Positions 2,619 to 40,191 of a stretch of 64,000 nt of DNA are shown here, piece after piece. Each line of letters opens with the position of its first letter. Position 1 is the stretch's first letter. The DNA is taken from assembly GCA_963749835.1 (NCBI GenBank), contig CAVVOD010000003.1, forward strand, positions 976,721 to 1,040,720, in the 5' to 3' direction. The DNA comes from an uncultured Acidobacteriota bacterium. Lineage in GTDB: Bacteria > Acidobacteriota > Vicinamibacteria > Vicinamibacterales > 2-12-FULL-66-21. Position numbers and translations under genes: made by a program. The notes under the pieces are model-generated. The model was not told where the DNA came from, made no database searches, and worked only from the letters and a program-made list of their open reading frames with translations.

Positions 2619-4925
2619 CTACTGCGTCGAACGCGTCCTCGAGAGCAGCGGACCGAATGCGGGTGGCGGCACCCGATGATGCGTGGCCGATTCGTACGCC
2701 GATGCCGCTTTGATCACGCTGGCGTCACTGCCCGGCCCTGACCAGAACATCATGCTGATCGGCATCGGATTGGGCAGCCTCGACTCCACCTGCCCCGTCA
2801 CCATGACGTAAGCCTTCTTGTCCGGCGAGAGGACGTACTGCGGGTCATACGTGATCTGGGTGTAGCCGGCGGGCACGTCCATCTCGGGCCCGCCCAGCAG
2901 GGCCGTGAACGCCGTGCAGCAACTGATCGTCGGGCGATCGTTCACCGGGGGCTCGCCGGCATATCCCAGCTTGTACGGCGCCGTCGTCTGCTCCGGGTTG
3001 ACGAAGACGTCGATGTTGTTCTCGTACATCACCTTGAGAATCACCATCCGCAGAACCGACTGCATCTTCATGTAACTGACGCTGTCGGGATCCGCCCGCG
3101 GATCCTGATCCGCGATGGCGTTCGTGGCGGCGGCCCGCTGCGCCTCGCTCTCCCACTTCGCGTGCGCTACCCAGGTGGCCCAATCCTTCACGCGGGTGTC
3201 GCCTCGTTCGGCGAGGTACTTGTTGACCGCAAACGGACTGCGCGGATTCCCGAGGCGGCTGCTGATGCGCCGCAGCGTGATCTTCTCGGACAGAGGCGCT
3301 TTCCCCAGCGCCAGCGCGACGGCATAGTCCACCGAGGTGACGTCCCACCCCGGGACGGCGAATTCGAGCTCACCGGAAGGGGTCTTCTGCCAGAAGTACT
3401 CCGGTACGTTGTGCGGCAGGATCTCGGCGAACGCCTGCTGGAACGTGTACTTCATGTTCGGCACCGCCGGGTCGTCCTTGTACAGCGGGTCCACCGACTC
3501 GACGAGCTCCGCGCCGAGCTTGTCCCGCAGGACGGCCTTGATCTCCTTGTCGATCTGGTCGCTGATCGCGGTGTCGTTCCTCGTGTGCTTCACCATGAAC
3601 TCACGGGCGATGCCGACACGCATGCCCTTGAGCGGCATGTTCTTCACGTCCTTGTTCCCCACGACAAAGCTCGCGTAGGGCTCCTTCGGAATCAGTGACT
3701 TTGGAATCGCGGTGAACATGTCCGCGGATTCGTAGCCCTTGATCGCATCCAGGACCGAGACCGCATCCATGACCGTGCGGCAGTGAAGACCGGCCCTGTC
3801 GCCAGCCCCTTTGCCGGTCTCGCCACCGTCCATCAGGATCCCCTTGGTCGTCAGCAGATTGACGACGTTGTTCCTGGACGCCGGCCCCTTGCAGGACGCG
3901 GAGCTCTGCTCACAGACCGAGCAGGCCACCAGGTTGGCGGCGACGGAGACGCCGGATCCGTTGCTGGTGCCGCGCGGCACCCGTTCCGTGTCGTACGGAT
4001 TGCACGTCTGGCCGCCCCACAGTCCGTACATCAGATTGCCGTCGGGCAGTACCGACGTCGCTTTCGCCGGACCGGTGGACGTGGGACCGCCGATAGCGTT
4101 GGCGGTCGCGACCGCGTAGATGATGGCGCCTTTCTTTCGCAGCTCTGCGACATCGGGCGAATCGACCTTCGGGACGTCCATCGCGAAGTTGACGTCGTTG
4201 CCGCCGGTGGCGCGCATGTCCTTCGCGTCGTACCAGTTCTTGATCGAGAAGACGGTGCAGTACATCGGCAGCTTTGCCAGATCGGGTTTGGTGCCGTACT
4301 GCTTGTCGAGCTCCGCCGCGCGTTCGAGTGCGTCGGGCTGCTTCCGGAACTCCTCACACACCGCCGGCGCACCCGCAGGCAGCGGCCCTGCGGAGGGGGC
4401 CTTGTCGAAGTCCCCCTTGCAGGTGACCGATCGCTCGCCGCGGATGTTGAGCGTCTCGAGCGCGTTCACCTGACCGGCGTTCGGGATGCCGACCCGCATG
4501 CCGAACTGCTGCTGCACGCCGGGGTCCGAGATCATCGGTTCCATCCGGCCAAGCTCGAGCGGCGGTCCGGAGTAGTCGCGATAGTTGGGAAACACGCTCG
4601 ACACAGGCACGGTCTTCGTGGGGAACGTGATCCCGAAACCGGCGCGCACCGCCCCGGTCGCTTCAGGAATCGGCGCGCCATCGGCCGTGACGAGCGCGGT
4701 GCACGTGCCGTTGTAGGCCTTCGCCCGGTCGATATACGCCTGGACCACGCCCTGACAGGTCGCCTGGCCGGACGTGATGGCGTTGTGTACGTCCGCGATC
4801 GTGCTTTCCTCGACGCGAAACCGGCCCTGTGCCGACGTCCCACGTACGAGCAGCGCGAGCACGGCGACGGACACCATCAATGCCGAGCCGTACCTCATCC
4901 CTCGAGTCTTTGCTGTCGTTGTCAT
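2619..4925 (-). CDS. Secreted divergent amidase-signature family protein, long form (paralogue A)
   Basis: 768-aa ORF with signal peptide (ALMVSVAVLALLVRGTSAQG). Aligns by eye to the canonical amidase at 7255..8871. Lys region is FSIKNWYD vs VVLKDQMD. cis-Ser region is RGTSNGSGVSVAA vs GGSSGGTGAAVSA. Nucleophile region is EQSSASCKGPASRN vs QEGFASIRRPSTWN. Extra ~160-aa Cys-containing insertion and a long C-terminal extension. Confidence 0.8.
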   Translation of the reverse strand: MTTTAKTRGMRYGSALMVSVAVLALLVRGTSAQGRFRVEESTIADVHNAITSGQATCQGVVQAYIDRAKAYNGTCTALVTADGAPIPEATGAVRAGFGITFPTKTVPVSSVFPNYRDYSGPPLELGRMEPMISDPGVQQQFGMRVGIPNAGQVNALETLNIRGERSVTCKGDFDKAPSAGPLPAGAPAVCEEFRKQPDALERAAELDKQYGTKPDLAKLPMYCTVFSIKNWYDAKDMRATGGNDVNFAMDVPKVDSPDVAELRKKGAIIYAVATANAIGGPTSTGPAKATSVLPDGNLMYGLWGGQTCNPYDTERVPRGTSNGSGVSVAANLVACSVCEQSSASCKGPASRNNVVNLLTTKGILMDGGETGKGAGDRAGLHCRTVMDAVSVLDAIKGYESADMFTAIPKSLIPKEPYASFVVGNKDVKNMPLKGMRVGIAREFMVKHTRNDTAISDQIDKEIKAVLRDKLGAELVESVDPLYKDDPAVPNMKYTFQQAFAEILPHNVPEYFWQKTPSGELEFAVPGWDVTSVDYAVALALGKAPLSEKITLRRISSRLGNPRSPFAVNKYLAERGDTRVKDWATWVAHAKWESEAQRAAATNAIADQDPRADPDSVSYMKMQSVLRMVILKVMYENNIDVFVNPEQTTAPYKLGYAGEPPVNDRPTISCCTAFTALLGGPEMDVPAGYTQITYDPQYVLSPDKKAYVMVTGQVESRLPNPMPISMMFWSGPGSDASVIKAASAYESATHHRVPPPAFGPLLSRTRSTQ

Positions 4926-4936
4926 CGTAAGGTGCC

Positions 4937-7243
4937 CTACTGGGTTGAACGCGTTCTGGCGAGCAGCGGACCGAATGCCGGCGGTGGCACCCGGTGATGC
5001 GTGGCCGATTCGTACGCCGATGCCGCTTTGATCACGCTGGAATCACTGCCCGGTCCTGACCAGAACATCATGCTGATCGGCATCGGGTTGGGCATGCGTG
5101 ACTCGACGTCCCCGGTGACCTCGAGGTAGGTCTTCTTGTCGGGCGACAACGCATACTGCGGGTCGTAGCTGATCTGCGTATAGCCGGCGGGCACGTCCAT
5201 CTCCGGCCCGCCCAGCAGGGCCGTGAAGGCCGTGCAGCAGCTGATCGTGGGACGGTCGTTTACTTCCGGCTCGCCGGCGAATCCCAGCTTGTAGGGGGCC
5301 GTCGTCTGCTCCGGGTTGACGAAGACGTCGATGCTGTTCTCATACATCACCTTGAGAATCACCATTCGCAGAACCGCCTGCATCTTGAGGTAGCTGACGG
5401 TATCCGGTTCCGCGCGCGGATCCTTGTCGGCAATCGCGTTCTCGGCGCCGGCGCGCTGCGTGTCGTTCTCCCATTTCGTGTTCGCCACGAAGCTTGCCCA
5501 GTCCTTGACCCGCGAGTCTCCGCGTTCGGCGAGGTACTTGTTGAGCACGAACGGGCTTCGCGGGTTCCCCAGGCGGCCGCTGATGCGTCGCAGCGTGAGC
5601 TTCTCTGACAGGGGCGCCTTCCCCATCGCCAGCGCGACGGCATAGTCAACAGAGGTCACGTCCCACCCGGGGACGGCGAACTCGAGCTGGCCGGAGGGCG
5701 TCTTCTGCCAGAAGTACTCCGGCACGTTGTGCGGCAGGATCTCGGCAAACGCCTGCTGGAACGTGTATTTCATGTTGGGGACTGTCGGGTCGTCCTTGTA
5801 CATCGGGTCCACCGACTCGACGAGCTCGGCGCCGAGCTTGTCCCGCAGCACGGCCTTGATCTCTTTGTCGATCTGGTCGCTGATCGCGATGTCGTTCTTC
5901 GTGTGCTTCACCATGAACTCGCGGGCGATGGCGACGCGCATGCCCTTGAGCGGCATGTTCTTCACGTCTTTGTCAGCGACGAGCACGCTGGCAAAAGGCT
6001 CTTGCGGAATCAGCGACTTCGGGATGGCGGTGAACATGTCACCGGACTCGTAGCCTTTGATGGCATCGAGCACCTGCACGGCGTCCGGGACCGTGCGGCA
6101 GTGAATCCCGGCCCGATCGCCGGCATTCTTGCTGCCGACGCCGCCGTCCATGATCAGCCCCTTGGTGGTGAGGAGGTTGACGACGCCGTTACGGGACGCG
6201 GGTCCCTTGCAGGACGCGGAACCTTGTTCGCAGATGGAGCACGATGCCAGGCTGGCCGCGACCGACACGCCAGACCCGCCACTCGTGCCTCTCGGCTCCC
6301 GAACGGTATCGTACGGATTGCAGGCCTGGCCCCCCCACTGCGCGTATTTGAGATTGCCGAACGGCATCACGGTCTTCGCCTTGGCAGGTCCGGTCGACGA
6401 TGGGCCGCCGACGTTGTCGGCTGTGGCGATCGCGTAGATGATCGCCCCCTTCTTCCGCAGCTCGGCGATGTCTGGCGAATCGACCTTCGGCACGTCCATC
6501 GCGTAGTTGACGTCGTTGCCCCCGGTGCCGCGCATGTCCTTCGCGTCGTACCAGTTCTTCAGCGAGAAGACGGTGCAGTACATCGGCAGCTTCGCCAGAT
6601 CGGGCTTGCTGCCGTACTGCTTGTCCAGTTCCGCGGCGCGTTCGAGTGCGTCCGGCTGCTTCCGGAATTCCTCGCACACCGCCGGTGCCCCCGCGGGCAG
6701 CGGCCCGGCGGACGGCGCCTTGTCGAACTCTCCCTTGCAGGTGACCGATCGCTCCCCGCGGATGTTGAGGGTTTCCAGCGCATTCAGCTGCCCGGCGTTC
6801 GGGACCCCGACGCGCATGCCGTACTGCTGCTGCACGGTGGGATCCGAGATCGTCGGCTCCATCCGGCCGAGCTCGAACGGCAGTCCGGCGTACTCGCGAT
6901 AGTTCGGGAACACGCTCGACACCGGCACTGTCGCCGTGGGGAACGTCATCTTCGAACCTGCACGGACAGCACCTGTCGCCGCAGGTATCGGCGCGCCATC
7001 CGCGGTCACGAGTGCCGTGCACGTGCCGTTGTAGGCCTTCGCCCGGTCGACATACGCCTGGACCACGGCCTGGCACGTGGTCTGTCCGGACTTGATGGCG
7101 TTCTGCACGCCGGCAATCGTGGTTTCCTCGACACGGAACGGGCCCTGCGCCGACGCGCCGCGCGGCAGGGACACGAGTCCCGCGACCGAGACCGCCAACC
7201 CCGCCAGTGCCCAATGGCGTCGAATCATCGTGATGGTCATCAT
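4937..7243 (-). CDS. Secreted divergent amidase-signature family protein, long form (paralogue B)
   Basis: 768-aa ORF, collinear with 2619..4925 and roughly 85% identical by eye. Signal peptide LAGLAVSVAGLVSLPRGASAQG. Motifs FSLKNWYD, RGTSGGSGVSVAA, EQGSASCKGPASRN. Confidence 0.8.
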   Translation of the reverse strand: MMTITMIRRHWALAGLAVSVAGLVSLPRGASAQGPFRVEETTIAGVQNAIKSGQTTCQAVVQAYVDRAKAYNGTCTALVTADGAPIPAATGAVRAGSKMTFPTATVPVSSVFPNYREYAGLPFELGRMEPTISDPTVQQQYGMRVGVPNAGQLNALETLNIRGERSVTCKGEFDKAPSAGPLPAGAPAVCEEFRKQPDALERAAELDKQYGSKPDLAKLPMYCTVFSLKNWYDAKDMRGTGGNDVNYAMDVPKVDSPDIAELRKKGAIIYAIATADNVGGPSSTGPAKAKTVMPFGNLKYAQWGGQACNPYDTVREPRGTSGGSGVSVAASLASCSICEQGSASCKGPASRNGVVNLLTTKGLIMDGGVGSKNAGDRAGIHCRTVPDAVQVLDAIKGYESGDMFTAIPKSLIPQEPFASVLVADKDVKNMPLKGMRVAIAREFMVKHTKNDIAISDQIDKEIKAVLRDKLGAELVESVDPMYKDDPTVPNMKYTFQQAFAEILPHNVPEYFWQKTPSGQLEFAVPGWDVTSVDYAVALAMGKAPLSEKLTLRRISGRLGNPRSPFVLNKYLAERGDSRVKDWASFVANTKWENDTQRAGAENAIADKDPRAEPDTVSYLKMQAVLRMVILKVMYENSIDVFVNPEQTTAPYKLGFAGEPEVNDRPTISCCTAFTALLGGPEMDVPAGYTQISYDPQYALSPDKKTYLEVTGDVESRMPNPMPISMMFWSGPGSDSSVIKAASAYESATHHRVPPPAFGPLLARTRSTQ

Positions 7244-7254
7244 GAACGTCCGTT

Positions 7255-8871
7255 CTACTGGATGCTGGCGGTGTTTGCCGACGTCAACGGCGGCGTGGTC
7301 TTTGGCGGACGGCGGTGCTTCGTGGCCTGCTCGTACGCATACGCCAGCTTGATCATCGTCGGCTCGCTGTACGGCCTGCCGAAGAACGTGATGCCGACGG
7401 GGAGTCCCTGGGGCGTGAAACCGGCAGGCACGACCATCGAGGCGACGTAAACCAGGAACGTGTTGAGGTGAGGCGCTCCCTTCTGGTTGGTGTAGGGAGG
7501 ATTGATCCCGTCGCGAATCAGCGTGGGCGTGTGCTCCACGGCCTTGTGGACTATCGCATCGAGCTTGTGGTCCGCCATGACTTTCATCACCGCGATCATC
7601 AGCTCGTCACGGGCGACGAGCTCAGACGGTCCTTCCGTCGGCTGTCTGTCCGAGGGACGCCTCATGATCTTTCCGTAGTCGGGAGAGTTGCGCACGTCGG
7701 CCATGGTCTTGAACTTCGACGTGGGGTTTCTCGCGAAGTAGACGGCCGCTCCGTCGCCCGCGCCTTCGCCGCCGCCGGTCCCGCGCCTCGCCAGCAGCTC
7801 GTTCAGGCGGGGAATCACAATCGGATCGACGATCACGGCCCCGGCCGTCTTCAGTTCGCCGACCGCCTTGTCGAAGACGGCGGTGACAGTCTTGAAGTCC
7901 TCGGAGTCTGGCTCGGTCGTGTACCCCATGGGTTCACGCAGAATCCCAATCCGCGCCCCCTTGAGTCCGTTCTTGTCGAGCGACTTCGTGTAGGTGTCCG
8001 GGATGTGCCCCACGCCGAGTGCCGTCACCGGGTCATCGGGGTCGTACCCGACCATGACGTCGAGCAGCCTGGCCATGTCCGTGACCGTCCGGGTCATCGG
8101 CCCGAGCGAGCCGCGGCGCGACGGCCAGCCGGCCCACACGCCCGAGCGGCTGACGAGGCCCGGCGTCGGACGCATGCCGACGATGCTGTTCCAGGTGGAG
8201 GGGCGTCGAATCGAGGCGAATCCCTCCTGCCCGACGCCGATGGTCGCGAAGTTCGCCGACACCGCGGCGCCGGTGCCACCCGACGAACCGCCGACGGTCC
8301 GCTCCGGGTCGTACGGGTTACGGCTGACGCCGAAGAGCGACCCATAGGAGTCGCCGCCGCCCATCTCGCCCAGCGTGACTTTCGCGAGAACGATGGCTCC
8401 CGCCTTTTTGAGCTTGTCGGTGACGAAGGCGTCGCGCACGGGGACGTTGTCCTTCATCACGACCAATCCGAGCGTCGTGGGAATGCCCGCGACGTCCATC
8501 TGGTCCTTGAGGACAACCGGAATGCCATGCAGCGGCCCGACGGGTCCGGATCGCTTGTAGGCCTCGTCCAGCGCCCCGGCTTCGTCCAGTGCTTTCGGAT
8601 TGATGGTGATGACCGAGTTGATCTTCGGGCCGTTCGTGTCGTACGCCTCGATGCGATTGAGATAGGCGCGGACCAGCGCCCGAGACGTCAACCGGCCGGC
8701 CTTGAACTCGGCCTGGACGTCCTCGATCGTCGCATCCACCAGCTCGAAGGGCTTCTGCTGCGCCTCGACCGCCGGCCCACGCCTGACGCCAAGTGCGGCG
8801 CAGAACGCCAGTACGCCCAGGGCCGTCCATATCCGGGCGCTCGTGACGCCGGTCATTCGCTGCTTTGTCAC
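7255..8871 (-). CDS. Secreted amidase (canonical amidase-signature enzyme)
   Basis: ORF track gives 7255..8994, but its first ~40 codons just translate the heptamer repeat (MLRATCYVLRAT...). A GTG at 8871 lies 7 nt after AAGGAGA and gives signal peptide (M)TKQRMTGVTSARIWTALGVLAFCAALG. Classic signature GGSSGGTGAAVSANFATIGVGQEGFASIRRPS and catalytic Lys context IPVVLKDQ. Confidence 0.85.
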   Translation of the reverse strand: MTKQRMTGVTSARIWTALGVLAFCAALGVRRGPAVEAQQKPFELVDATIEDVQAEFKAGRLTSRALVRAYLNRIEAYDTNGPKINSVITINPKALDEAGALDEAYKRSGPVGPLHGIPVVLKDQMDVAGIPTTLGLVVMKDNVPVRDAFVTDKLKKAGAIVLAKVTLGEMGGGDSYGSLFGVSRNPYDPERTVGGSSGGTGAAVSANFATIGVGQEGFASIRRPSTWNSIVGMRPTPGLVSRSGVWAGWPSRRGSLGPMTRTVTDMARLLDVMVGYDPDDPVTALGVGHIPDTYTKSLDKNGLKGARIGILREPMGYTTEPDSEDFKTVTAVFDKAVGELKTAGAVIVDPIVIPRLNELLARRGTGGGEGAGDGAAVYFARNPTSKFKTMADVRNSPDYGKIMRRPSDRQPTEGPSELVARDELMIAVMKVMADHKLDAIVHKAVEHTPTLIRDGINPPYTNQKGAPHLNTFLVYVASMVVPAGFTPQGLPVGITFFGRPYSEPTMIKLAYAYEQATKHRRPPKTTPPLTSANTASIQ

Positions 8872-8933
8872 AGGGTCATCTCCTTGAAATTTCTCAACCG
8901 ACGAACACGAACCACCCAGCACATCGCACTCAT

Positions 8934-8998
8934 CACGTCGCACGTCGCACGTCGCACGGGTAGCACGTAGCACGTAGCACGTAGCACGTAGCACGTAG
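8934..8998. repeat. Tandem heptanucleotide array (CACGTCG)x3 then (CACGTAG)x5
   Basis: Read directly: cacgtcg cacgtcg cacgtcg cacgggtag cacgtag x5. Lies between the TBDR stop (9004) and the amidase start. Confidence 0.95.
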
Positions 8999-9003
8999 TT
9001 GGG

Positions 9004-12000
9004 CTACCAGAGCAGCTTCGCCCCCAGTTGCACCTGCCGCGCGGACGTGCGCGTGTTGGTGATCACGCCGACGTTGGCGGTCAGGTTTCCGCGATCGTCG
9101 AAGATGGTGGTTGCCGGTGTCGCGAAGTTGGCGCGGTTGAGCGCGTTGAACATTTCGACGCGCAGCTGCGCCGTGGCCCGGCCCAGCCGCTGGGCCTTGA
9201 CGAGCACCAGGTCGAGCGTCGCTTGGCCAGGAGAGATGAGCGAGTTCCGACCGAGGTTGCCGAGGACCCCGTCAGCGGGAAACGCGAAGCACTCGGTCTT
9301 GATGTAGTGATTCACGTTGCCCGGATTGGTCAGCGTCGCGCAGGCCGGACTCATGATGCGATCGGGCGGCTGCCCGAGGCCGCTGCCGGTCGTGTCCGCC
9401 TTGGATCCGGCTCGATCGCCGTTCAGCGCGACCGTGAACGGAAATCCGCTCTGGGCGCGATAGATCCCTGAAATCTGCCATCCCTCCGCCAGGTTCCGCA
9501 TCAGCCCCGTGAGTGCCTTCGAGTAGGGAATTTCGAACACGACGCTGCCGACGAAGTTGTGGCGCACGTCGTAGTTGGACAGACCACGGGCGAGCTCAGG
9601 CAGCAATGGCGTGGCGACCGAGAACGCGCTCTCGTATCCGGTTCCGGCGGCGACCGAGGAAATCGACGATCCGGTATCGATGCTCTTGCTCCACGTGTAC
9701 GACGTTTGGGTCTGGAGACCGCGGCTCAGGTTGCGCTTCAGCACGGTCTGGAGGCCGTGGTAGTTCGAGTTGGCGTTCCATGTGACGGTTGTATTGATGG
9801 CCGAGAAGTTCGGATTGAGGACGGTGCTCGTCGCGCGCGGTTCATACACCCAGCGCCCGTCCACCTTCCTCGGGATCACCGTGTTCATGTTCCGCTCGAC
9901 GAGCGGCAGGTTCATGCCACGTGCGCCCACGTAGCCGACATCCGCAGTCCAGGCGCCGAACTGCCGCTGGACGTCCACGTTCCACTGGGTCCGGTAGGCG
10001 CGGGGAGGATTCGGATCCACCCACGCCGTCCGCAGGTTCTGCACGCCGAGGAGGGAATACGCGCCGGAGGGAAACGACCCGGCCGGAGGATTCAGCGCCA
10101 CACCCTGGAGGAAGAACGGCGTCGACCGGTTCAACGGCGTTTCGTAGAGATAGAGAAACGGCAGGACGTCGAAGACTCCGAACCCGCCCCGCACGGCGGT
10201 CTTGTGATCGCCGAAGGGGTCCCAGGCAACCCCGATGCGCGGAGCAAAGTTCTTCAGCGTCGGATTGCTGTCGTGGATCTTGCCGCCGACGGTGACGGTG
10301 GGATCGGTCAGGTTCTTGAGCAGCGCGACCTTGTTGTTGACTTCCGTCGGGATGGTCATCATCTCGTAGCGCAGCCCGAGGTTCAGCGTCAGCGTGTTCG
10401 TCCAGCGGATATCGTCCTGGACATACGCGCCAACGAGCGTCTCCCGCATGCTGCGCACGGTGTCCGACTGCGGATAGAGCGCGCCGAAGCGGGACGGCCT
10501 GTTCTGCAGGAACGTGGCGAGCGTGCCGAAGCTGAAGGATCCTCCCGTGGCGTTCGGGGTGTCGAAGTTGTTCTGCATGTGTTCCACGTTGAAGCCGACC
10601 TTCATGGAATGCTTTCCGCGGAGCACGAACAGGTCCTGGCTGCCCTGGTAGGAGGTGAACTCCAGCGTGGCGTAGTCGACCGCGCCAGGGCCGCCGCCGG
10701 CCCCCGCGAGCCCCGGCACCGAGATCGCTCCGATCGGAAGCCCCGGTATGTAGCCGAGTGAGGTGTCGGTGAGCGCCGGGTTCATCGTGTCGATGATGCT
10801 GCCGCTCTTCGATACCGTGCGCGAGATGCCGAAGCGGCTCACGCTCACGATCGCCGAGCCGAACCCGTGCGAGTACTCGGACATCAGCACCCGCCGCTGC
10901 GACTTGTCGGCGAGCTGCTTCATGAGAAACGCGTCCGGCTGTTCGACGTTCGCGTCGTCGAACAGCACCGTGCCGCTCAGGCTGCCGGTCGTCGTCAGCT
11001 TGTGATCGAGCTTGACGAGCCCGTAGTCGCCGCGCGATTCCTTGTTTCGGACGGCGTAGTACTGGCCGGTGTCGCCGTTGCCGAGCAGTTCACCATTCGG
11101 CAGGGGATACAGCGCCAGCGCCCTGGCGATCTGAGGATCGACCGCCACGGTGCCGGCGGCAAGCCGGCCCTCACGGGCAGCAGGCGACAACGTCGTGGAA
11201 ACCGTGGTCTGCCCGAGAATCTCGCGAAGGCCCTCGTAGTCGCCGAACCAGAAGGTACGGTTCTTCACGAGCGGTCCGCCGAGCGCAATGCCGTACTGGT
11301 TCCTGTTGAATGGCGGGGGATCGCTGCCGCGGTCGAAGTAGTCTTTCGAGTCCATCCGGCTGTTCCGGTTGAACTCGAACACCGTGCCCCGAATCTGGTT
11401 CGTGCCCGACCGCGTGATCGCGTTGACGACGCCACCGGACGTCCGCCCGTACTCCGCCGAGTAGGAGTTCGTCAGCACCGAGAACTCGGCCACCGCCTCG
11501 ACGCCGAGATTCGTGCCGAGGGCGTTTCCGGGCGTCGTGTTGGCGTAGTCGTTCACACCAATGCCGTTCAGTCGATAGTTGTTCTCCGACGGACGCGCGC
11601 CGGCGACCGCCATCTTCATCCCGTTGCCCGATCGTGTGCCCCCGCTGTTGCCGACGCCGACGACGCCGGGCTGCAGCATGGCCAGCTGCGTCCAGTCCCG
11701 GCCGTTGAGCGGCAGCTCGCGGATCGTGGTGCCGCTGACGTTGTGGCGGAGCGTCGCCGACGCCGTCTCGATGCGGGGCGCGTCGCCCGACACGACGACG
11801 TTCTCGTTGACGCTGCCCACCTTCATCTCGAAATCCACCGCGGCCTCGCCGCCGACCGTCAGCGTGAGGCCCTTTCTCGTCTGGGTGTTGAAGCCGTCGA
11901 AGGTGACCGTGACGTCATAGGTGCCGGGCAGCAGATTCGGGGCGCTGTAGAAGCCCCCCTCATTCGTGATGACGCTGGTGACGACGCCCGTGGCGACGTT

Positions 12001-12165
12001 CGTGATGGCCACGCTCGCATGCGGCAACGTCGACGCGCTCTGATCGCGCACGCGGCCGGTGAAAGTTCCGCCGACGGTCTGCGCTTCGAGAACTGTTGAA
12101 GCCAGCAACACGAGACACATGGAGAGGCTCGAGCACCGCGATGCCCTCGCACGGCTAGTCGACAT
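9004..12165 (-). CDS. TonB-dependent receptor with N-terminal carboxypeptidase-regulatory-like domain (Oar-type)
   Basis: 1068-aa ORF. Internal ATG at 12165 gives signal peptide MSTSRARASRCSSLSMCLVLLASTVLEAQT. Beta-sandwich motif GFYSAPNLLPGTYDVTVTFDGF. Plug region IRELPLNGRDWTQLAMLQPGV. Long barrel ending QLGAKLLW. Confidence 0.85.
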   Translation of the reverse strand: MSTSRARASRCSSLSMCLVLLASTVLEAQTVGGTFTGRVRDQSASTLPHASVAITNVATGVVTSVITNEGGFYSAPNLLPGTYDVTVTFDGFNTQTRKGLTLTVGGEAAVDFEMKVGSVNENVVVSGDAPRIETASATLRHNVSGTTIRELPLNGRDWTQLAMLQPGVVGVGNSGGTRSGNGMKMAVAGARPSENNYRLNGIGVNDYANTTPGNALGTNLGVEAVAEFSVLTNSYSAEYGRTSGGVVNAITRSGTNQIRGTVFEFNRNSRMDSKDYFDRGSDPPPFNRNQYGIALGGPLVKNRTFWFGDYEGLREILGQTTVSTTLSPAAREGRLAAGTVAVDPQIARALALYPLPNGELLGNGDTGQYYAVRNKESRGDYGLVKLDHKLTTTGSLSGTVLFDDANVEQPDAFLMKQLADKSQRRVLMSEYSHGFGSAIVSVSRFGISRTVSKSGSIIDTMNPALTDTSLGYIPGLPIGAISVPGLAGAGGGPGAVDYATLEFTSYQGSQDLFVLRGKHSMKVGFNVEHMQNNFDTPNATGGSFSFGTLATFLQNRPSRFGALYPQSDTVRSMRETLVGAYVQDDIRWTNTLTLNLGLRYEMMTIPTEVNNKVALLKNLTDPTVTVGGKIHDSNPTLKNFAPRIGVAWDPFGDHKTAVRGGFGVFDVLPFLYLYETPLNRSTPFFLQGVALNPPAGSFPSGAYSLLGVQNLRTAWVDPNPPRAYRTQWNVDVQRQFGAWTADVGYVGARGMNLPLVERNMNTVIPRKVDGRWVYEPRATSTVLNPNFSAINTTVTWNANSNYHGLQTVLKRNLSRGLQTQTSYTWSKSIDTGSSISSVAAGTGYESAFSVATPLLPELARGLSNYDVRHNFVGSVVFEIPYSKALTGLMRNLAEGWQISGIYRAQSGFPFTVALNGDRAGSKADTTGSGLGQPPDRIMSPACATLTNPGNVNHYIKTECFAFPADGVLGNLGRNSLISPGQATLDLVLVKAQRLGRATAQLRVEMFNALNRANFATPATTIFDDRGNLTANVGVITNTRTSARQVQLGAKLLW

Positions 12166-12788
12166 AGGCAGTCCCAGTCCTCTCTTGATGCTGATCGCAT
12201 GACAGCTCACGCAGGAATCAGTTCAGATGTGCGGGTTGACGCGCGGTCTTTGAAAGCCCCTTAGCAACCGACGTACCGAGCAGGCGATCAGTTGACCGGA
12301 GAGCGTCATTACCGAACGATTCGCAGCGAGGAGTGTCGTGGCGTGGTTGCGTGAGCCGCCGAGAGCGCATGCAGAGCGGGAGGATGGCGACAGGTTTGTC
12401 GCCGTTCGCAGGATGCAGCGCCAAGAATGGTCGACGCGCACGATCGGAAGCGAGTGACGCGACGGCTCGTGTCGCGCACGATCGCGGAGCTCACGCGATC
12501 GGCGACACGCACGATGCGAGCGAATGACAGACGCCTCGCCGGCGCGGGACGTGAGCGCTATCGCGTGGCTTTGTTCACTCGTTGCTGGTCACAACCGCCA
12601 GTGATCAGAATGACTGGAGCCAGGATGCTCCGGCACGTCAGCGGCGGTTGGATCTGCAGCGGCGCGCGGCGCATTCGGCGGAATCGGTCGCCGGCACTCG
12701 GCATATCGCAAGGCGCAACCCCACCGGGCTGCCAGCCGATTCCTGACGTGTCCGGCGGTGATCCTGTCTCGTGGCAGGCCCGAAAACA

Positions 12789-12813
12789 ATGGCGCAAAGA
12801 GGCATTGCGCCAT
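12789..12813 (-). terminator. Perfect 9-bp stem hairpin followed by TGTTTTCG on the minus strand (terminator- or attenuator-like)
   Basis: atggcgcaa-agaggca-ttgcgccat. Minus-strand 3' flank is tgttttcg. Sits inside the long non-coding leader upstream of the TBDR. Confidence 0.3.
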
Positions 12814-12990
12814 CCTTGTTCCCGTTTGCGCGCAGGGTTCACAAATGTTTCTTCCGCGCGAACGCCAGAAGCGAAGGCAGTTCGTGATGCGCGAGAGCGC
12901 CGCGACTGACGGTCCGTCGGTTGCAGACGGAATCCCAGTTGCTGCGCCGCCCTTTACGCCGGTGCGCGTCTGCGGCAAGCTGAAGACGCC

Positions 12991-13281
12991 ATGTTCGTCA
13001 TCGAGCTCACCTACAAGGCCAGCCTTGCGCAAATCGACGCGAGCATGGCCGCTCATGTCAGGTTCCTCAAGAAGTACTACGCGGCCGGCAACTTCCTGGT
13101 CTCCGGTCGAAAGGTCCCGAGAGAGGGGGGAATCATCCTGGCCGTCGGCCGGAGCCGGGAGGACATCGAGGCCATCATGCGCACGGACCCGTTCTGCGAG
13201 CGCGGGCTTGCCGACTTCCGGGTAATCGAGTTCCGGGCGAGCCAGCGAGCCGACGACATCCAGAAACGCATCGACGGGTAG
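12991..13281 (+). CDS. YciI-like (DGPF-domain) small protein
   Basis: 96-aa ORF MFVIELTYKASLAQIDASMAAHVRFLKKYYAAGNFLVSGRKVPREGGIILAVGRSREDIEAIMRTDPF... This is the typical YciI family pattern. Confidence 0.75.
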   Translation: MFVIELTYKASLAQIDASMAAHVRFLKKYYAAGNFLVSGRKVPREGGIILAVGRSREDIEAIMRTDPFCERGLADFRVIEFRASQRADDIQKRIDG

Positions 13282-13291
13282 CGGCCGTTCC

Positions 13292-13321
13292 GCGCCTCAG
13301 CGCCGTGCGAACTTGAGGCGC
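13292..13321. terminator. 8-bp inverted repeat between convergent genes (possible bidirectional terminator)
   Basis: gcgcctca-N14-tgaggcgc between the yciI-like stop and the ADOP stop. Large loop and no clear U-tract. Confidence 0.25.
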
Positions 13322-13363
13322 CTCACTCTTGGAGAAGCAACCGTCCGAACCGGAGCGAGCCCA

Positions 13364-16042
13364 TCATTCCTGTCGCAGCGCGACCATCGGGTCCATGTTC
13401 GCGGCGCGGTACGCGGGCAGGACGACGGCCAGCGAGGTGGTGACCAGGAAGGCGGCAGCCGCAGCCGCCATGACCGCGGGATCGACGGTCGCGATGCCAA
13501 AGAGCTGCGACTGGACGAGGCGCATCAACGCCAGTGAACCCAGGAGGCCTGCCGCCAGCCCGCCGGCCATCATTCCGAAGAGCTCTTTCAGCACGAGCGA
13601 GACGAGCGCGTGCCGCCGCGCGCCGAGGGCGGTGCGGATTCCAAGCTCCTTCGTACGACGCACGACCGAGTAGCTCAAGAGACCAAACAAGCCAATCGCG
13701 ACCAGCACGAGTCCAAGCAGCGCAAACACACCGCCGACCCCTGCCAGCAGTTTCTCCTTCAACAGCGTATTGCCGATGAGCGTTTCGAGCGTCGTCACCT
13801 CGACGACATGGAGCCCGGGCCCGGCGGTCCTGGTCTCTTGCTCCACCAGCCGCATCACCGAACCCGGATCGAGTGTCGATCGCACGTACACCGTGAACAG
13901 CCTGGGCGGCTTCATAGGAAAATAGACCACCGGCTGCAGTCCATCCCGCAGGTCCGAGTAAAAGGCATCCGCCGAAACGCCGACGATCACGTGGCGTGCG
14001 TTGTCCGTTCGTCGTCGAAATTCCTTTCCGAGAACCGGTGCCCCGCCGAAGTACCTCCGCGCGAACGCACGGTTGACGATCGTCGGGATGGGCTGAACGC
14101 CGTCGTTGTCGCGGACGTCGAAGTCGCGTCCCTCCAGGAGGGGAGTCCTGAGTGTGGCGAAGTAACCCGGTGAAACCCGATAGAACGTCTCCTGGCGCTC
14201 CGAAGGCGGCCTTCCCTCGAGGACGATCTGCTCAGCGCGCCTGCTGTCGCCGAAGATCGCCCACCAGCCGACGGCAGCCCCCTGCACCGTGGGCAGCATG
14301 GACACCTGGCGTTGCAGCTGTTGCGTCAACTGCAGGCCGTCCTGTTTGGGACCCAGATCGCTCCGCATCGTCAGCACCGTGACGTGTGCCGGATCGAACC
14401 CCATGCCCACTGAGAACAGTTTCTGAAGGCTGAAGAGAAAGCCCGCCCCAGCCACGACGAGGCAGAACACGAATGCGACCTGCACGGATACGAAGAGCCG
14501 CCCGAGAAAGACCCTGCGGGCTTCCCCGCTTCCAGGGGTGACCGCCGGGATGGCTCGGCCTCCCGCGCCATGCCACGCCGGCAGGACGCCGACAATCAGG
14601 GCCGTTACCGTGCACAGACCGGCGCCGAAGAGCAGGACACGAGTGTCCATCGCGAATGCGAACCGGACCGGATCGCTGTCCGTCGACAGCAGCGTGACGA
14701 TCCAGGGAGCGGTGGCGCTCGCGAACACCCAGCCCAGGATGCCCGCAAGTCCTGAGAGCAACAGGCTCTCTGTCAGCAGCTGGCGCACCAGGCGCCCACG
14801 GCTGGCGCCGAGCGACGTGCGGAGCGACATCTCCGGCGATCGTGCGGCCGCGCGTGAAAGGAGCAGGCTGGCGACGTTCGCACAGGCGACGAGCAGAATG
14901 GCCGCCGCCACACTCCACACGATCCATATCGGCCGCGAGAAGCTGCGCTGGAAATCGGACACGCCGATTCCGCCGGGGCGTACCCGGATGCCCCTGTCGC
15001 CGAAGGCCTTCAGGGCCGCTGCCGGCATCGCCGCATTCTGCGCGATCATGTCCTGCTGGCGATCGTGAAACACCGGCTGCAGCCGCGCCTGGAGCTGCTC
15101 ACGACTGGTCCCGCCGTCAAGGCGCCCGACGATGCGGAACAGGTTCGCGGCGGGGCTCGAGAACACACCAGGGTCGAACGTCATGACGGGCACCCACACA
15201 TCGACGAACTTCCCGGGTTCGACGCCGAAGAACCCCTCCCGGGCGACGCCGACGATGTGATGCTGCCTGTTGTTGAGGGTGATCGGCCGCCCAAGGACAC
15301 CGGGATCCGCATTGAAATGGCGCTGCCAGTACTCGAAGCTGAGCACGGCGGTACGCGGAACGCCAGGGTCGCGATCGTCGTTGCTGGAGAACAGGCGGCC
15401 CAGTGCAGGCATGACGCGAAGCGTCTCGAACGCTTCGCCGGACACGAACTGCTGCCTGACTCTCTCGATGGGAGCCGTCGGATCCGCGCCTTGCGCCTCG
15501 GCGCGATCCGTGGGACCGAAGACGACCAGGCGCGCTGAATCTCCAGCGGCCGCGCGAAACTGGAGGTAGAGGGGGTAGCTGAAGGACTCGGTCTCGCCCG
15601 CCGCAGGCGTCGCGCCAGCTTCGAGGGCGGGCGCGGCCAGCGTGAACACGCGCTTTGCATCCGGCACCGGCAGCGGCCGCAGCATGGCGGCATCGACGAT
15701 CGCGTAGATCGCCGTGTTCGCGCCGATTGCCAGGCTGAGCGACAACAGGGCCGTGATCGTGAACGCCGGGCTCCTGCGCATCGTGCGCCAGGCATAGCGG
15801 ACGTCCTGAATCGTGCTCTCGAGCCCTGTCCACAATCGGATCTCCCGGCTCTGTTCGCGCACCCGGGTGACGCTGCCGAACGCCGTCAGCGCCCGCCGCC
15901 GTGCCTCGGCGGCGGTCAGGCCCTGCTCACGGAAGGCCGCTGAGCGCCGCTCCAGGTGATCCTGGATTTCGTCCTCCAGCGACTCGTCGAGCGGTCGCGT
16001 GTGCAGCGCGTTCTTCAGCCGTGAGAACCAGGACATGGCCAA
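13364..16042 (-). CDS. ADOP-type MacB/FtsX-like permease
   Basis: 892-aa ORF. Leader MSWFSRLKNALHTRPLDESLEDEIQDHLERRSAAFREQGLTAAEARRRAL. Duplicated FtsX bundles. C-terminus LPAYRAANMDPMVALRQE. Confidence 0.9.
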   Translation of the reverse strand: MAMSWFSRLKNALHTRPLDESLEDEIQDHLERRSAAFREQGLTAAEARRRALTAFGSVTRVREQSREIRLWTGLESTIQDVRYAWRTMRRSPAFTITALLSLSLAIGANTAIYAIVDAAMLRPLPVPDAKRVFTLAAPALEAGATPAAGETESFSYPLYLQFRAAAGDSARLVVFGPTDRAEAQGADPTAPIERVRQQFVSGEAFETLRVMPALGRLFSSNDDRDPGVPRTAVLSFEYWQRHFNADPGVLGRPITLNNRQHHIVGVAREGFFGVEPGKFVDVWVPVMTFDPGVFSSPAANLFRIVGRLDGGTSREQLQARLQPVFHDRQQDMIAQNAAMPAAALKAFGDRGIRVRPGGIGVSDFQRSFSRPIWIVWSVAAAILLVACANVASLLLSRAAARSPEMSLRTSLGASRGRLVRQLLTESLLLSGLAGILGWVFASATAPWIVTLLSTDSDPVRFAFAMDTRVLLFGAGLCTVTALIVGVLPAWHGAGGRAIPAVTPGSGEARRVFLGRLFVSVQVAFVFCLVVAGAGFLFSLQKLFSVGMGFDPAHVTVLTMRSDLGPKQDGLQLTQQLQRQVSMLPTVQGAAVGWWAIFGDSRRAEQIVLEGRPPSERQETFYRVSPGYFATLRTPLLEGRDFDVRDNDGVQPIPTIVNRAFARRYFGGAPVLGKEFRRRTDNARHVIVGVSADAFYSDLRDGLQPVVYFPMKPPRLFTVYVRSTLDPGSVMRLVEQETRTAGPGLHVVEVTTLETLIGNTLLKEKLLAGVGGVFALLGLVLVAIGLFGLLSYSVVRRTKELGIRTALGARRHALVSLVLKELFGMMAGGLAAGLLGSLALMRLVQSQLFGIATVDPAVMAAAAAAFLVTTSLAVVLPAYRAANMDPMVALRQE

Positions 16043-24237: not shown

Positions 24238-24378
24238 ACTCGGGATTCGGGGCTCGGGATTCGGGGCTCGGGATTCGGGGTTCGGGATTCGGGATTCGGC
24301 GTCCCCGGATCCCGGTTCAGGGCGGTCCGCAGTGCCGAGTCCCGAACCGCGAGCCCCGAGTCCCGAGTCCCGATCCCC
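24238..24378. repeat. Inverted pair of heptanucleotide arrays (CGGGATT/CGGGGCT)n ... (GAGTCCC/GAGCCCC)n, able to form a long imperfect hairpin
   Basis: Left arm is cgggatt cggggct cgggatt cggggct cgggatt cggggtt cgggatt cgggatt. Right arm is gagtccc gaaccgc gagcccc gagtccc gagtccc gatcccc. Lies between two same-strand genes. Confidence 0.9.
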
Positions 24379-35247: not shown

Positions 35248-35294
35248 CCTTGTCGCATCCTCAATCGACACGTCTTCGATGGAATGGAGAGCCC

Positions 35295-38200
35295 ATGTTC
35301 CCGAAGTCAGGTGCGTCCGCGGGTTTGCTGGCACGGGTCCTTTTCGCATTTTTCGCTGTCGTCCCTCCTCTTGAAGGACAGACACCGTCCGGCGAGATCA
35401 GTGGTGTCGTCACGGACCCGAGCGGAGCGGCCGTGCCCGGGGTGACGGTCACGCTCAGGAGCGAGGGCACCAACGCCCTGCGGGAGGTGCAGACCAATGC
35501 ATCCGGTTTGTACGTGATGCCGGCGATTCCCCCCGGCGTCTACACCCTGCAGGCGACTCTCACAGGATTCCGGACGGTCGAACGCAAGGGCATCGAAGTG
35601 CAGGTCGGCAGCGCCAGCCGCATCGCCTTCACCCTCGAGGTCGGGCAGCTCTCGGAGGTGGTGGAGATCACGGGCGGCGCCCCGCTCCTCCAGACGGAGA
35701 ATTCCGCCGTGGGTACGGTCATCGACAACCGCGCCATCGTGGAACTGCCGCTGAACGGCCGCAACTACCTGCAGCTGGCCTCACTGATCCCGGGCGCGAC
35801 GACCAACGGACCCTCGTCGAGCCAGGGGAAGCAGCGGATGGGCGGCCAGCGCAACAGCTTCGCGCTCAACGTCGCCGGCCAGCGGATCCACTACAACCAC
35901 TACTCGCTCGACGGTGTGGAGAACACCGACCTGAATTTCAACTCCTACATGCTGCTGCCGTCTGTGGACGCGCTGCAGGAGTTCAACGTCGTCGCCGGCC
36001 TGTTCGATGCCGAGTACGGACGGGCCATCGCCCAGATCAATGCCTCGACGAAGTCCGGCACGAATGCGATGCACGGCACGGTGTTCGAGTTCGGACGCCA
36101 TTCGTCACTCGACGCCAAGAACTACTTCGATCGCGCCGACCGTCCGATTCCGCCGTTCCGCCGCAATCAGTACGGCGGCACCATCGGTGGGCCGGTGGTG
36201 ATTCCGAAGCTCGTGGACGGCCGGGATCGGCTGTTCTTCATGTTCAACTTCGAGGGTCTGCGCGAGACGAAGTCGCTGACGGCAAACCCCTCCGTGCCGC
36301 TCACCGCCTGGCGCTCCGGCGATTTCTCGAACCTGCGCGACGCGAACGGCAACCTGATTCCCATTTACGACCCTGCGACGCGCGTATTCGACGCGGCCGG
36401 GAACGTCACCCAGGCCCCGACAGCGTTTCCCGGCAATCGCATACCCGCGACGCGTATCCACCCCATCTCGAAGCAACTGCTCGATTACTATCCGCTGCCG
36501 CTCCAGGAAACCACGGGCAGCAACTTCGTGAACGACGAGGCGCGGCGCGTGAACGCCGACCAGTACACCTACCGCCTGGACTTCACGCAGAGCTCGACCT
36601 CGCGGTGGTTCTTCCGTCACAGCATCTCGCACGAGCTCGGCTACGATCCCTTCGCGATTCCGAACATGGGCATCAACACCGACACCGACGTGCAGCAGGC
36701 CGCACTCGGCTATACCCGGATGTTCGGGTCGAACAAATTGAATGACTTCCGCCTGGGCTTCGGGAAGCTGGAGAACGGCCACATTTCACCACGAGCCAAC
36801 ACCGACAACGTCGTCGGACGGCTCGGCATCAACCTGCCGAACGACAACCCGCTCTACTGGGGCGTTCCCAACATCGGCATCACGGGCCTGTCTGGCATCG
36901 GCGAGGAGAGCGACGCCCCCTTCATCAACGACGACGTGACGCTGCAGTTCGTGGACAACTTCACGTGGACGGTGGCCCGGCACTCGTTCAAGTTCGGAGG
37001 GGAGCTGCGGCACGTGCGCTACAACCAGATCGGCGGCGTGGTCACGCGCGGCCGGTGGGCCTTCGACGGCCGGTACACGCAGAACCCGCTGCTGCCGGCC
37101 GCCGACCGCGGGGGCGCGGCGTTTGCGGACTTTCTCCTGGGCCACTTCAATCGCTCGGAAGGCCAGGTCGGCGCGCCGATTGCGAACTTCCGATCCAACT
37201 ACTTCGCCCTGTTCGCGCAGGACAGCTGGAAGATCGCCAACAACCTGACGATCAACTACGGGCTGCGGTGGGAGTACGACCAGCCCTTCACCGACACGAA
37301 CGACGCCATCGTCAACATCGACTTCGACTGGGCGAACCGCTACGAACCCATATTCGTGCGCACGGGCACGGGAGATCCCTACGAGGGCAATCCGGCGTTC
37401 CGGCTCGCACCGGATGTGCAATACGTTCGGGACGGCCGGTTCGGGCGAGGGGCGTACCGCAGCGACTACAATGACTTCGCGCCACGTGTGGGTATTGCGT
37501 GGGCGGTGACGCCGAAGACCGTCCTCCGCGCGGGCGGCGGCATCTACTACGTGCGCGACATCGGCAACGCCGTCTTCGACACTGTGCGCAACGCCCCCTT
37601 CACGATCCGGCGCGACGAGCCGGCCGAGACCTTCCGGCCGAATCTCAGCTACGAGCAGCCGTTCGCGCGGACTGGCGCGCCGACCTTCATCCTCGCGGCC
37701 CAGTGGGACGAGCCCTCGACCTACGTGGCCCAGTGGTCGCTCGGGGGCCAGCGCGAGATCTTCGGCAACATGACCATCGACCTGACGTATTTCGGGTCCG
37801 CGGGTGTGCACCTCCGCCGGCTCATGAGCTACAACAACCCGGAGCCGAGCCAGCTCGCGAACTCGAATCTCGCGCGACCGTTCCCGAAGTTCGGGAGCAT
37901 CCAGGTGATGAGCGCGCCGGGCCATTCGAGCTATCACGCGGGTTACCTCAAGCTGCAGCGCCGGTTCTCGCAAGGCATCAGCTTCCTGAGCTCCTTCTCA
38001 TACGGCAAGTCCATCGACGATGGCAGCGGAATCCGCACCACGGACGGCGACTCTCTGACGCCGTCGAACAACTACAATCTCCGGCTCGAACGGGGTCTGT
38101 CGGCGTTCGATTTCCGCCGCCGCTGGACGACGTCGGGGTTGTGGGATCTGCCGATCGGACAGGACAAGCGGTGGTTGAACCGCCGCGGCGTGCTCGACTG

Positions 38201-38666
38201 GGTGCTTGGCGGCTGGCAACTGGGCGGCATCGTCACGCTGCAGGACGGCTTTCCGTTCACGGTGCTGTGCGGCGGCGGAGCGATTCAGAACGGCGGCGGC
38301 GTCTGTTATCCGGATTCCACAGGTCAGGACTGGCGCCTGCCAGCGGACGAACGGACCCGCACGCGGTACTTCAACACCAACGCGTTCATCGACCGGAACC
38401 CGCCGGGCGGCCCGTTCCGCTACGGGACCGTCGGGCGCAACTCGCTCATCGGTCCGGGCATCGTGAGCGTCGACGCGTCGGCGAACAAGCGCTTCCGCCT
38501 GAAGGGATCGAGTTACGCCGAGCTCCGCGTCGAAGTGTTCAACCTGCCGAATCATCCGATCTGGAACCAGCCCGGAAACACGCTCCGCACGCCGACCTTC
38601 GGCGTGATCACGAGCACGCGGATGGATTCGAGGCAGATTCAGCTGGGGATGAAGGTCGTCTTCTGA
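35295..38666 (+). CDS. TonB-dependent receptor with carboxypeptidase-regulatory-like N-domain (Oar-type)
   Basis: ATG at 35295 gives MFPKSGASAGLLARVLFAFFAVVPPLEGQ. Also GVVTDPSGAAVPGVTVTL...GLYVMPAIPPGVYTLQATLTGF. Plug region VELPLNGRNYLQLASLIPG. Barrel ends IQLGMKVVF. Confidence 0.9.
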   Translation: MFPKSGASAGLLARVLFAFFAVVPPLEGQTPSGEISGVVTDPSGAAVPGVTVTLRSEGTNALREVQTNASGLYVMPAIPPGVYTLQATLTGFRTVERKGIEVQVGSASRIAFTLEVGQLSEVVEITGGAPLLQTENSAVGTVIDNRAIVELPLNGRNYLQLASLIPGATTNGPSSSQGKQRMGGQRNSFALNVAGQRIHYNHYSLDGVENTDLNFNSYMLLPSVDALQEFNVVAGLFDAEYGRAIAQINASTKSGTNAMHGTVFEFGRHSSLDAKNYFDRADRPIPPFRRNQYGGTIGGPVVIPKLVDGRDRLFFMFNFEGLRETKSLTANPSVPLTAWRSGDFSNLRDANGNLIPIYDPATRVFDAAGNVTQAPTAFPGNRIPATRIHPISKQLLDYYPLPLQETTGSNFVNDEARRVNADQYTYRLDFTQSSTSRWFFRHSISHELGYDPFAIPNMGINTDTDVQQAALGYTRMFGSNKLNDFRLGFGKLENGHISPRANTDNVVGRLGINLPNDNPLYWGVPNIGITGLSGIGEESDAPFINDDVTLQFVDNFTWTVARHSFKFGGELRHVRYNQIGGVVTRGRWAFDGRYTQNPLLPAADRGGAAFADFLLGHFNRSEGQVGAPIANFRSNYFALFAQDSWKIANNLTINYGLRWEYDQPFTDTNDAIVNIDFDWANRYEPIFVRTGTGDPYEGNPAFRLAPDVQYVRDGRFGRGAYRSDYNDFAPRVGIAWAVTPKTVLRAGGGIYYVRDIGNAVFDTVRNAPFTIRRDEPAETFRPNLSYEQPFARTGAPTFILAAQWDEPSTYVAQWSLGGQREIFGNMTIDLTYFGSAGVHLRRLMSYNNPEPSQLANSNLARPFPKFGSIQVMSAPGHSSYHAGYLKLQRRFSQGISFLSSFSYGKSIDDGSGIRTTDGDSLTPSNNYNLRLERGLSAFDFRRRWTTSGLWDLPIGQDKRWLNRRGVLDWVLGGWQLGGIVTLQDGFPFTVLCGGGAIQNGGGVCYPDSTGQDWRLPADERTRTRYFNTNAFIDRNPPGGPFRYGTVGRNSLIGPGIVSVDASANKRFRLKGSSYAELRVEVFNLPNHPIWNQPGNTLRTPTFGVITSTRMDSRQIQLGMKVVF

Positions 38667-40132: not shown

Positions 40133-40140
40133 CTGCCTCT

Positions 40141-40188: not shown

Positions 40189-40191
40189 CTC

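Follow-up and report, generated by a model that had tools for sequence, protein, structure and literature searches.

A candidate amide utilisation locus that pairs an Oar-type TonB-dependent receptor with secreted amidases in an uncultured Acidobacteriota bacterium

A 64,000-nucleotide (nt) stretch of DNA from an uncultured bacterium of the Acidobacteriota, order Vicinamibacterales (contig CAVVOD010000003.1; the whole stretch is called the window below), carries a block of four consecutive minus-strand open reading frames (ORFs), one for an Oar-type TonB-dependent receptor and three for predicted secreted enzymes of the amidase-signature family, namely a short canonical amidase and two long paralogues. 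The block is probably, though by no means certainly, a four-gene operon whose products take up an amide compound in a TonB-dependent manner and hydrolyse it in the periplasm. A first-pass annotation of the same DNA had already proposed an import and periplasmic amide-hydrolysis module, and the proposal has gained support that is comparative throughout; it is from comparisons of DNA and protein sequences that we infer co-transcription, protein localisation, the direction of transport, catalysis and substrate. As far as sequence can show, no result that would refute the proposal by that annotation's own terms was obtained. A larger claim can be entertained more tentatively, namely that the cysteine-rich amidases of about 770 residues are a new and strongly conserved subfamily that has co-evolved with its own receptor clade in Acidobacteriota, and that the block might accordingly be called a sigma-54-controlled amide utilisation locus. 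The members of the block are as follows.

9004..12165, minus strand: Oar-type TonB-dependent receptor, 1053 amino acids (aa); signal peptide, CarboxypepD_reg extension, TonB-box-like ENVVVSG, putative plug, large barrel
7255..8871, minus strand: short canonical amidase-signature enzyme, 538 aa; signal-peptide-like N-terminus; peptide-amidase-like
4937..7243, minus strand: long amidase A, 768 aa; signal-peptide-like N-terminus; 12 cysteines
2619..4925, minus strand: long amidase B, 768 aa; tandem paralogue of A, with the same 12 cysteines and the same triad
8934..8998, no strand assigned: heptamer tandem repeat, nine copies, reading CTACGTG/CGACGTG on the minus strand; TRF score 91; occupies the receptor-amidase spacer

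The ends of the four genes in the ORF listing agree with the coordinates of the first-pass annotation, and its gaps of about 130, 11 and 11 nt are 132, 11 and 11 nt when read directly from the sequence. Neither a long gap nor a terminator-like hairpin on the coding strand was found within the block, and the 11-nt spacers suggest coupled translation. The mechanically called ORF of the short amidase reaches a GTG at 8994, and the resulting 5' extension consists of heptamer repeats and has a G+C content at third codon positions (GC3) of 0.50, against 0.86 in the genes (the G+C content of the window is about 65%). Since the GTG at 8871 stands 8 nt past an AAGGAG, the start originally placed there is likely to be the correct one. 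The annotation had also given each protein its own signal peptide, and in a heuristic check (not SignalP) all four N-termini have two or three K/R followed by a hydrophobic stretch, with no lipobox. Its domain calls hold as well, that is, a TonB-dependent receptor with a carboxypeptidase-regulatory N-domain, a canonical amidase and two 768-aa amidase-like paralogues. The one amendment concerns its description of three different amidases: there are indeed three genes, and they are not of three types, since the long pair are recent paralogues (84% identical and gap-free), so that the block has two enzyme types, one of them duplicated. The ratio of nonsynonymous to synonymous substitution rates between these paralogues (dN/dS 0.155) argues that they are under purifying selection. 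The block is limited to the four genes, with no SusD domain in any of them by Pfam, and is flanked by MacB/FtsX-type permease genes and a YCII gene. Named homologues come from Vicinamibacterales, Bryobacteraceae and Terriglobia, and none of the four block proteins falls in a named NCBIfam equivalog.

The receptor has the architecture of the Oar type, in which a CarboxypepD_reg N-terminal extension (PF13620, 70.3 bits; cutoff 32.3) is joined to a large barrel (PF25183, 559 bits, profile positions 1-838). Its match to the Plug domain, at 20.3 bits, is under the 23.9 cutoff, and the TonB-box-like ENVVVSG was spotted by eye after the extension. Compared by architecture (CarboxypepD_reg extension, putative plug and large PF25183 barrel), it is like Oar, a TonB-dependent transporter of Myxococcus xanthus (PMC6434023). 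The two differ in that Oar is linked to the export of a protease without a signal peptide, whereas the block receptor adjoins hydrolases with predicted Sec export signals and the comparative evidence points to import. The window holds three receptors with a CarboxypepD_reg extension, and its second Oar-type receptor scores just 289 bits against that of the block.

Elsewhere in the window, two cobalamin riboswitches lie back to back (Rfam; 56647-56858 on the minus strand and 56952-57152 on the plus strand, 102 and 96 bits). One precedes the gene for a periplasmic binding protein (54973-56703), and the other directly precedes a CarboxypepD_reg-extended TonB receptor (57337-58701) that appears split, overlapping a second ORF at 58382-59692; a CobD gene is found at 46880-47962. 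The position of this receptor right behind a cobalamin riboswitch argues that receptors with this architecture serve import in this organism.

Judged from the gene order of sequenced loci, the synteny between receptor and amidase is strong and reciprocal. A genome scan, restricted to one genome per species and with taxon labels taken as deposited, yielded 76 loci with a long amidase (L003-L078), all of them in metagenome-assembled genomes and none in an isolate; because the scan was based on two exact peptide patterns, it under-samples divergent members. Three loci labelled Klebsiella pneumoniae are probably mislabelled, being lake bins with unrelated gene content. The pairing of TonB-dependent receptor and long amidase that the first-pass annotation had singled out recurs in related genomes: about 21-22 of the 37 Acidobacteriota loci have, within 4.5 kb of the long amidase or amidases, a receptor close to that of the window and from a single receptor clade. 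Such loci usually add one to three short and one to four long amidases in variable order, and about two in three of the syntenic loci have a short amidase together with the receptor. Three more Acidobacteriota loci have an adjacent Oar-type receptor of another kind. A separate look-up of homologues turned up one locus with four long amidases, an Oar-type receptor and a DsbA fusion, as well as a Bryobacteraceae genome with two short amidases, a receptor and two long amidases.

The reciprocal side of the argument comes from a neighbour-joining tree of 95 Oar-type receptors. Of the 19 receptors that adjoin long amidases, 18 form one clade with the window's own; the exception is the divergently transcribed receptor of locus L044. 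Wherever a clade member has 2.5 kb of flank or more, an amidase is there, and all 23 receptors that have full flanks and no amidase nearby fall outside the clade. A simple orthology threshold of >700 bits was tried and dropped, because a reciprocal scan of metagenomes gave many receptors of 700-870 bits without an amidase nearby; many receptors 40-44% identical to that of the window likewise have none.

The long amidase is also linked to receptors outside the Acidobacteriota. In Gammaproteobacteria it lies beside two unrelated receptor lineages in at least 10 of 25 loci, or in 13 of 25 when the Pseudohongiella clusters (FecI, FecR, two receptors and an IorAB-like oxidoreductase) are included. 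Both of these lineages have a Plug domain and neither matched a named model, the NCBIfam hits to generic receptors for siderophores, B12 and haem all staying below threshold. The amidase is thus linked to three receptor lineages, with one of which it has diversified in parallel; most simply read, what the receptor brings in is the substrate of the amidases. In Rhodospirillaceae, the amidase lies between a secreted PF04199 cyclase/formamidase and a major facilitator superfamily (MFS) transporter, with no receptor. The other neighbours vary by lineage and include an SDF symporter with a CLC channel, MFS transporters, an OmpR-type two-component system, a LysR regulator, an IorAB-like molybdenum oxidoreductase and PF04199 proteins; the SDF symporter is found in two lake genomes and the MFS transporter in two others. 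Naming a substrate from neighbouring genes was attempted and given up, since none is general enough, which agrees with the earlier view that the substrate is not deducible from the sequence.

The short amidase is a conventional member of its family. PF01425 matches over its full length with 262 bits (cutoff 27 bits), and its best solved relative is a peptide amidase (5AC3/1M21, E 3e-70). It has the canonical GGSSGG motif together with ASIRRPS, reads G-F-A-S-I-R around the nucleophile, and retains the canonical triad residues, while the mature protein has no cysteines. It does not reach the equivalog cutoff of NF006006 (PRK08137), the Pam-like group, scoring 323.6 bits against 534; the long amidases score 109-116 bits.

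Within the amidase-signature family, the long amidases belong to a branch for which the searches made found no characterised member. PF01425 matches only residues ~197-476 (90 bits, profile positions 26-274 of 445; residues 197-466 in long amidase A), and the closest solved protein is the peptide amidase (Pam) of Stenotrophomonas maltophilia, at E 2e-15. Pam (1M21/1M22, 5AC3) shares the amidase-signature fold and the Ser-cisSer-Lys triad with both enzyme types of the block. It is itself exported to the periplasm. A profile of 34 long homologues is colinear with Pam in three blocks, at the N-terminal helix (35-71 of the long enzyme on 5-41 of Pam), the catalytic core (195-407 on 54-253) and the C-terminal strand-helix (720-755 on 456-491). 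The three blocks argue that the extra mass of the long enzymes, which are ~230 residues bigger than Pam, is an insertion of ~120 aa after the first helix (72-194) plus ~110 residues in the C-terminal half (within 408-719). The long enzymes share only the core with Pam, and the insertion, the 12 cysteines and altered serine motifs are found on the long-amidase side. In the alignment with Pam, K229 falls on the catalytic Lys, S321 on the cis-Ser and S344 on the nucleophile Ser, and all three are invariant in the 34 close homologues and in 78 full-length homologues (50-80% identity) from Acidobacteriota, Gamma- and Alphaproteobacteria, Myxococcota and one Marinimicrobia-labelled genome.

Ten cysteines are conserved in the 78 homologues, eight of them invariant and two (C335 and C382) with one exception each. 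The adjacent pair C669-C670 is kept in about three quarters of the homologues and is lost as a pair elsewhere. A gene for a fusion of a SurA_N chaperone with a DsbA thioredoxin is embedded in two independent receptor-amidase loci (L001, 8922-9971; L015, 11530-12663), and together with the conserved cysteines it suggests an enzyme that is rich in disulfides and works in the periplasm or outside the cell. Relatives at a greater distance (30-37% identity, 640-780 aa) retain canonical GSSSGS and GGSIR motifs and have the insertion only in part, which argues that the long type of the window is a derived branch of a wider group; the branch is highly conserved, in that clustering at 50% leaves about six full-length representatives. 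A structure model made with AlphaFold 2 (AF2) from the alignment of 34 sequences (mean pLDDT, the per-residue confidence score, 69.5; pTM, the overall fold score, 0.77) matches amidase-signature structures exclusively, at a probability of 1.0, with Tse8, peptide amidase and GatA on top.

The DNA upstream of the receptor gene offers a candidate for its control. The first-pass annotation described a ~780-nt non-coding leader, and this is where it has to be revised: the non-coding stretch is an 825-nt divergent intergenic region (12166-12990) without codon-position bias, shared with a gene on the other strand, and the predicted promoter would imply a 5' untranslated region of ~90 nt.

12263..12277, minus strand: sigma-54-type -24/-12 element GGTACGTCGGTTGCT, 98 nt before the receptor ATG; predicted start near 12253
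12386..12428, minus strand: candidate enhancer (activator-binding) module, ATTCTTGGCG, then 15 nt, then the perfect palindrome GGCGACAaaccTGTCGCC (12403-12386); 105-150 nt upstream of the promoter element
12991..13281, plus strand: YCII gene, which shares the divergent intergenic region with the receptor gene and was overlooked in the earlier annotation

The pattern GGYAC-N5-TTGCT has its sole match on either strand of the 64-kb window at this site, with 0.16 expected; since 16 of 100 shuffled sequences had at least one match, the match in the window is by itself weak evidence. The main argument for a real promoter is that its position is conserved. The same element lies 95-120 nt before the receptor start in the four closest loci (L004, L067, L080 and L081), with the GG and GC elements 10 nt apart, matching the consensus and kept at orthologous positions; the surrounding DNA has no blastn similarity to those relatives, and just seven more matches to the pattern were found in all remaining fetched DNA. 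The module ATTCYTGRCG, a spacer and a GACA-N4-TGTC palindrome, is likewise common to the closest loci, at the same distance in L004, L067 and L080, and a second copy is present further upstream in L004 and L080. The spacing of module and promoter resembles the geometry of an enhancer-dependent promoter, and an activator could bind the module. No enhancer-binding protein of the GAFTGA type is encoded in the window or in the close loci. The sigma-54-type motif is absent from the Terriglobia and Bryobacteraceae loci, and four Terriglobia loci have an OmpR-type two-component system next door instead.

Several other interpretations of the intergenic region were rejected. A structured RNA leader finds no Rfam match in 8700-13400 even at E up to 1; a conserved leader finds no upstream similarity by blastn to the closest relatives, with which the window shares ~78% identity in coding DNA; and the ORFs that might betray a hidden gene (12427-12909 on the plus strand, 12589-13056 and 12558-12842 on the minus strand) have flat G+C contents of ~0.65 at all three codon positions and no Pfam match. 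Outside the Acidobacteriota, the same sigma-54-type pattern was observed just upstream of a FecI-like sigma factor gene in the long-amidase clusters of Pseudohongiella.

L036 6743-6757, L037 6653-6667 and L043 6837-6851, minus strand: sigma-54-type pattern before the FecI-like gene, same pattern as in the window

A mechanism consistent with these data would begin with transcription, most likely from the sigma-54-type promoter ~90 nt before the receptor gene, with an activator encoded elsewhere bound to the conserved palindromic module ~110-150 nt further upstream. A single mRNA would span all four genes. All four proteins would be exported by Sec, the receptor to the outer membrane, and the three amidases would be soluble in the periplasm, where the long ones would probably gain stability from as many as six disulfides. 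With energy from TonB-ExbBD, the receptor would bring in a substrate whose size or scarcity puts it beyond the reach of porins; the short and long amidases would then cleave its C-N bonds by the Ser-cisSer-Lys mechanism, releasing ammonia or an amine and a carboxylate, and the products might enter the cell through general inner-membrane transporters. If we had to name a substrate, it would be a peptide-like amide or some other amide of organic nitrogen, as suggested by the similarity to peptide amidase and by the sigma-54-type promoter.

The nearest analogies are with the polysaccharide utilisation loci (PULs) of Bacteroidota and the carbohydrate utilisation loci of Xanthomonas and Caulobacter, which likewise encode a receptor and exported degradative enzymes in one operon, in pairings that are conserved across species and with enzymes expanded by duplication. 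The block shares with utilisation loci the co-localisation of a receptor with degradative enzymes and the retention of the pairing across species. PULs, in contrast, have glycoside hydrolases where the window has amidases, and the block has a sigma-54-type promoter and lacks a SusD-like lipoprotein, an inner-membrane transporter and a regulator. Pairs of the PfeA-PfeE type are similar in that a receptor gene adjoins the gene for a periplasmic hydrolase of the imported molecule; they differ in that the hydrolase is an esterase of another fold acting on a known iron chelate, whereas the window locus gives no sign of an iron context. Full-text literature searches aimed at a receptor-amidase system or at these long amidases found no description of either, in keeping with the earlier statement that this is not a described, named system.

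Several observations weigh against uptake and periplasmic hydrolysis as the function of the block. An adjacent receptor is missing for ~40% of the Acidobacteriota homologues and for 9 of 9 from Alphaproteobacteria, which argues that the amidase is not strictly receptor-dependent, and the block of the window has no gene for an inner-membrane transporter or for a binding protein. The serine motifs of the long amidases have diverged from the canonical forms, GGSIR to SASCKGP and GGSSGG to GTSxGS. The AF2 model has pLDDT <50 at 317-328 and 342-344, in the active site, and models the insertion poorly as well, so it served only as confirmation of the fold. The gene calls in the compared loci come from a crude ORF-based procedure, and the receptor tree carries no bootstrap support. 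Finally, Oar is required for a protein export process in Myxococcus, the secretion of PopC (PMC6434023).

The last point leads to a quite different function, in which the receptor would move periplasmic amidases over the outer membrane, as Oar does with the protease PopC, and hydrolysis would take place outside the cell. The CarboxypepD_reg extension of Oar is the same, and Oar is needed for PopC secretion (PMC6434023); furthermore, the amidases are cysteine-rich, like many extracellular proteins. We nevertheless think export improbable, because in Gammaproteobacteria this amidase family is found with classical receptors that are not of the Oar type and are under FecI/FecR control, while in Alphaproteobacteria it occurs without any receptor, because a receptor of the window with the same extension is riboswitch-controlled, implying import, and because PopC has no signal peptide and each of the amidases has a predicted one. 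If the direction is inward, the cargo could still be other than a nutrient. An amide-linked metallophore is possible given the FecI/FecR context in Gammaproteobacteria, where the receptor plugs best match siderophore-receptor models, although below their cutoffs, and PfeA-PfeE of Pseudomonas provides a precedent, with a receptor and a periplasmic hydrolase that opens ferric enterobactin. The block would then import an amide-linked metal chelate, a xenosiderophore or metallophore, from which the amidases free the metal, serving metal acquisition rather than nitrogen or carbon nutrition. This is unlikely in our estimate: the window has no iron-related genes and no recognisable Fur-type context, its receptor matches no siderophore-receptor model above E 1e-4, the predicted sigma-54-type promoter would be unusual for iron uptake, and the presence of up to four amidase copies per locus fits a heterogeneous nutrient better than a single chelate.

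It is also conceivable, if about as improbable as export, that the long proteins do not hydrolyse small amides at all and instead keep the amidase fold as binding or chaperone-like partners of the receptor, or as transferases. The motifs around both serines are altered, Pfam spans about a third of the protein, and the top structural match of the AF2 model is Tse8, which reportedly works by binding protein and not by catalysis. All three triad residues are nevertheless invariant in 78 of 78 homologues, the pattern expected of an active enzyme. As for adjacency without any functional coupling, Acidobacteria have very many Oar-type receptors, three with the CarboxypepD_reg extension in this window alone, and the receptors at 40-44% identity that lack a nearby amidase make a chance neighbour imaginable. 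Yet the amidase-adjacent receptors are a single clade with no evaluable exception inside it, and a second phylum shows the pairing too, with receptors of other families; we regard coincidence as very improbable indeed.

If the larger claim of a sigma-54-controlled amide utilisation locus holds, such loci might give abundant, uncultured bacteria of soil and freshwater one of their main means of reaching a class of environmental amides that has gone unrecognised, such as oligomers of organic nitrogen that do not fit through porins. Much of the organic nitrogen of soil is amide nitrogen, and Acidobacteria are among the most abundant soil bacteria; to our knowledge, the substrates of almost all of their many Oar-type receptors have yet to be assigned. 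The block receptor is a tractable entry point for such assignment, being one of few with a fixed enzymatic partner. With their triad intact, 10-12 of their cysteines fixed and 50-80% identity across several phyla, the long amidases clearly invite enzyme discovery, and the origin of all 76 loci in metagenomes may explain how the system went unnoticed.

The pairing of an Oar-type receptor with an amidase may be a broader theme. In seven loci from soil metagenomes (L084, L086, L087, L088, L090, L140 and L153), two tandem Oar-type receptors are followed by one gene and then by a distinct short amidase; the receptors of this module score about 855 and 765 bits against that of the window, and its short amidase about 340 bits. 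Within the window, a third Oar-type receptor (35250-38666, plus strand; PF25183, 788 bits) lies 4.5 kb from a gene for a tannase/feruloyl esterase (43161-44732, minus strand; 355 bits), and these may be another pairing of receptor and hydrolase.

The permeases that flank the block belong to a set of four large MacB_PCD/FtsX paralogues within the 64 kb (153-2606 on the plus strand; 13364-16042, 40192-42990 and 60406-62460 on the minus strand), and they are not conserved beside the operon in relatives. The family is typically expanded in Acidobacteria.

The heptamer array between receptor and short amidase recurs at three further intergenic sites of the window (40140-40189, 45208-45245 and 59701-59795). 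It is absent from the equivalent spacers of L004 and L080, which argues that it is probably no functional part of the operon. Further intergenic heptamer arrays were noted at 24240-24378, 42978-43023 and 45042-45113. The arrays of the window are mostly (TACGTGC)n with up to 13 copies, and the corresponding 14-mer has 24 matches against 0.24 expected; they resemble the short tandem heptamer repeats of cyanobacteria. The receptor-amidase spacer of L080 has octamer arrays in inverted orientation, at 5480-5495 and 5728-5761.

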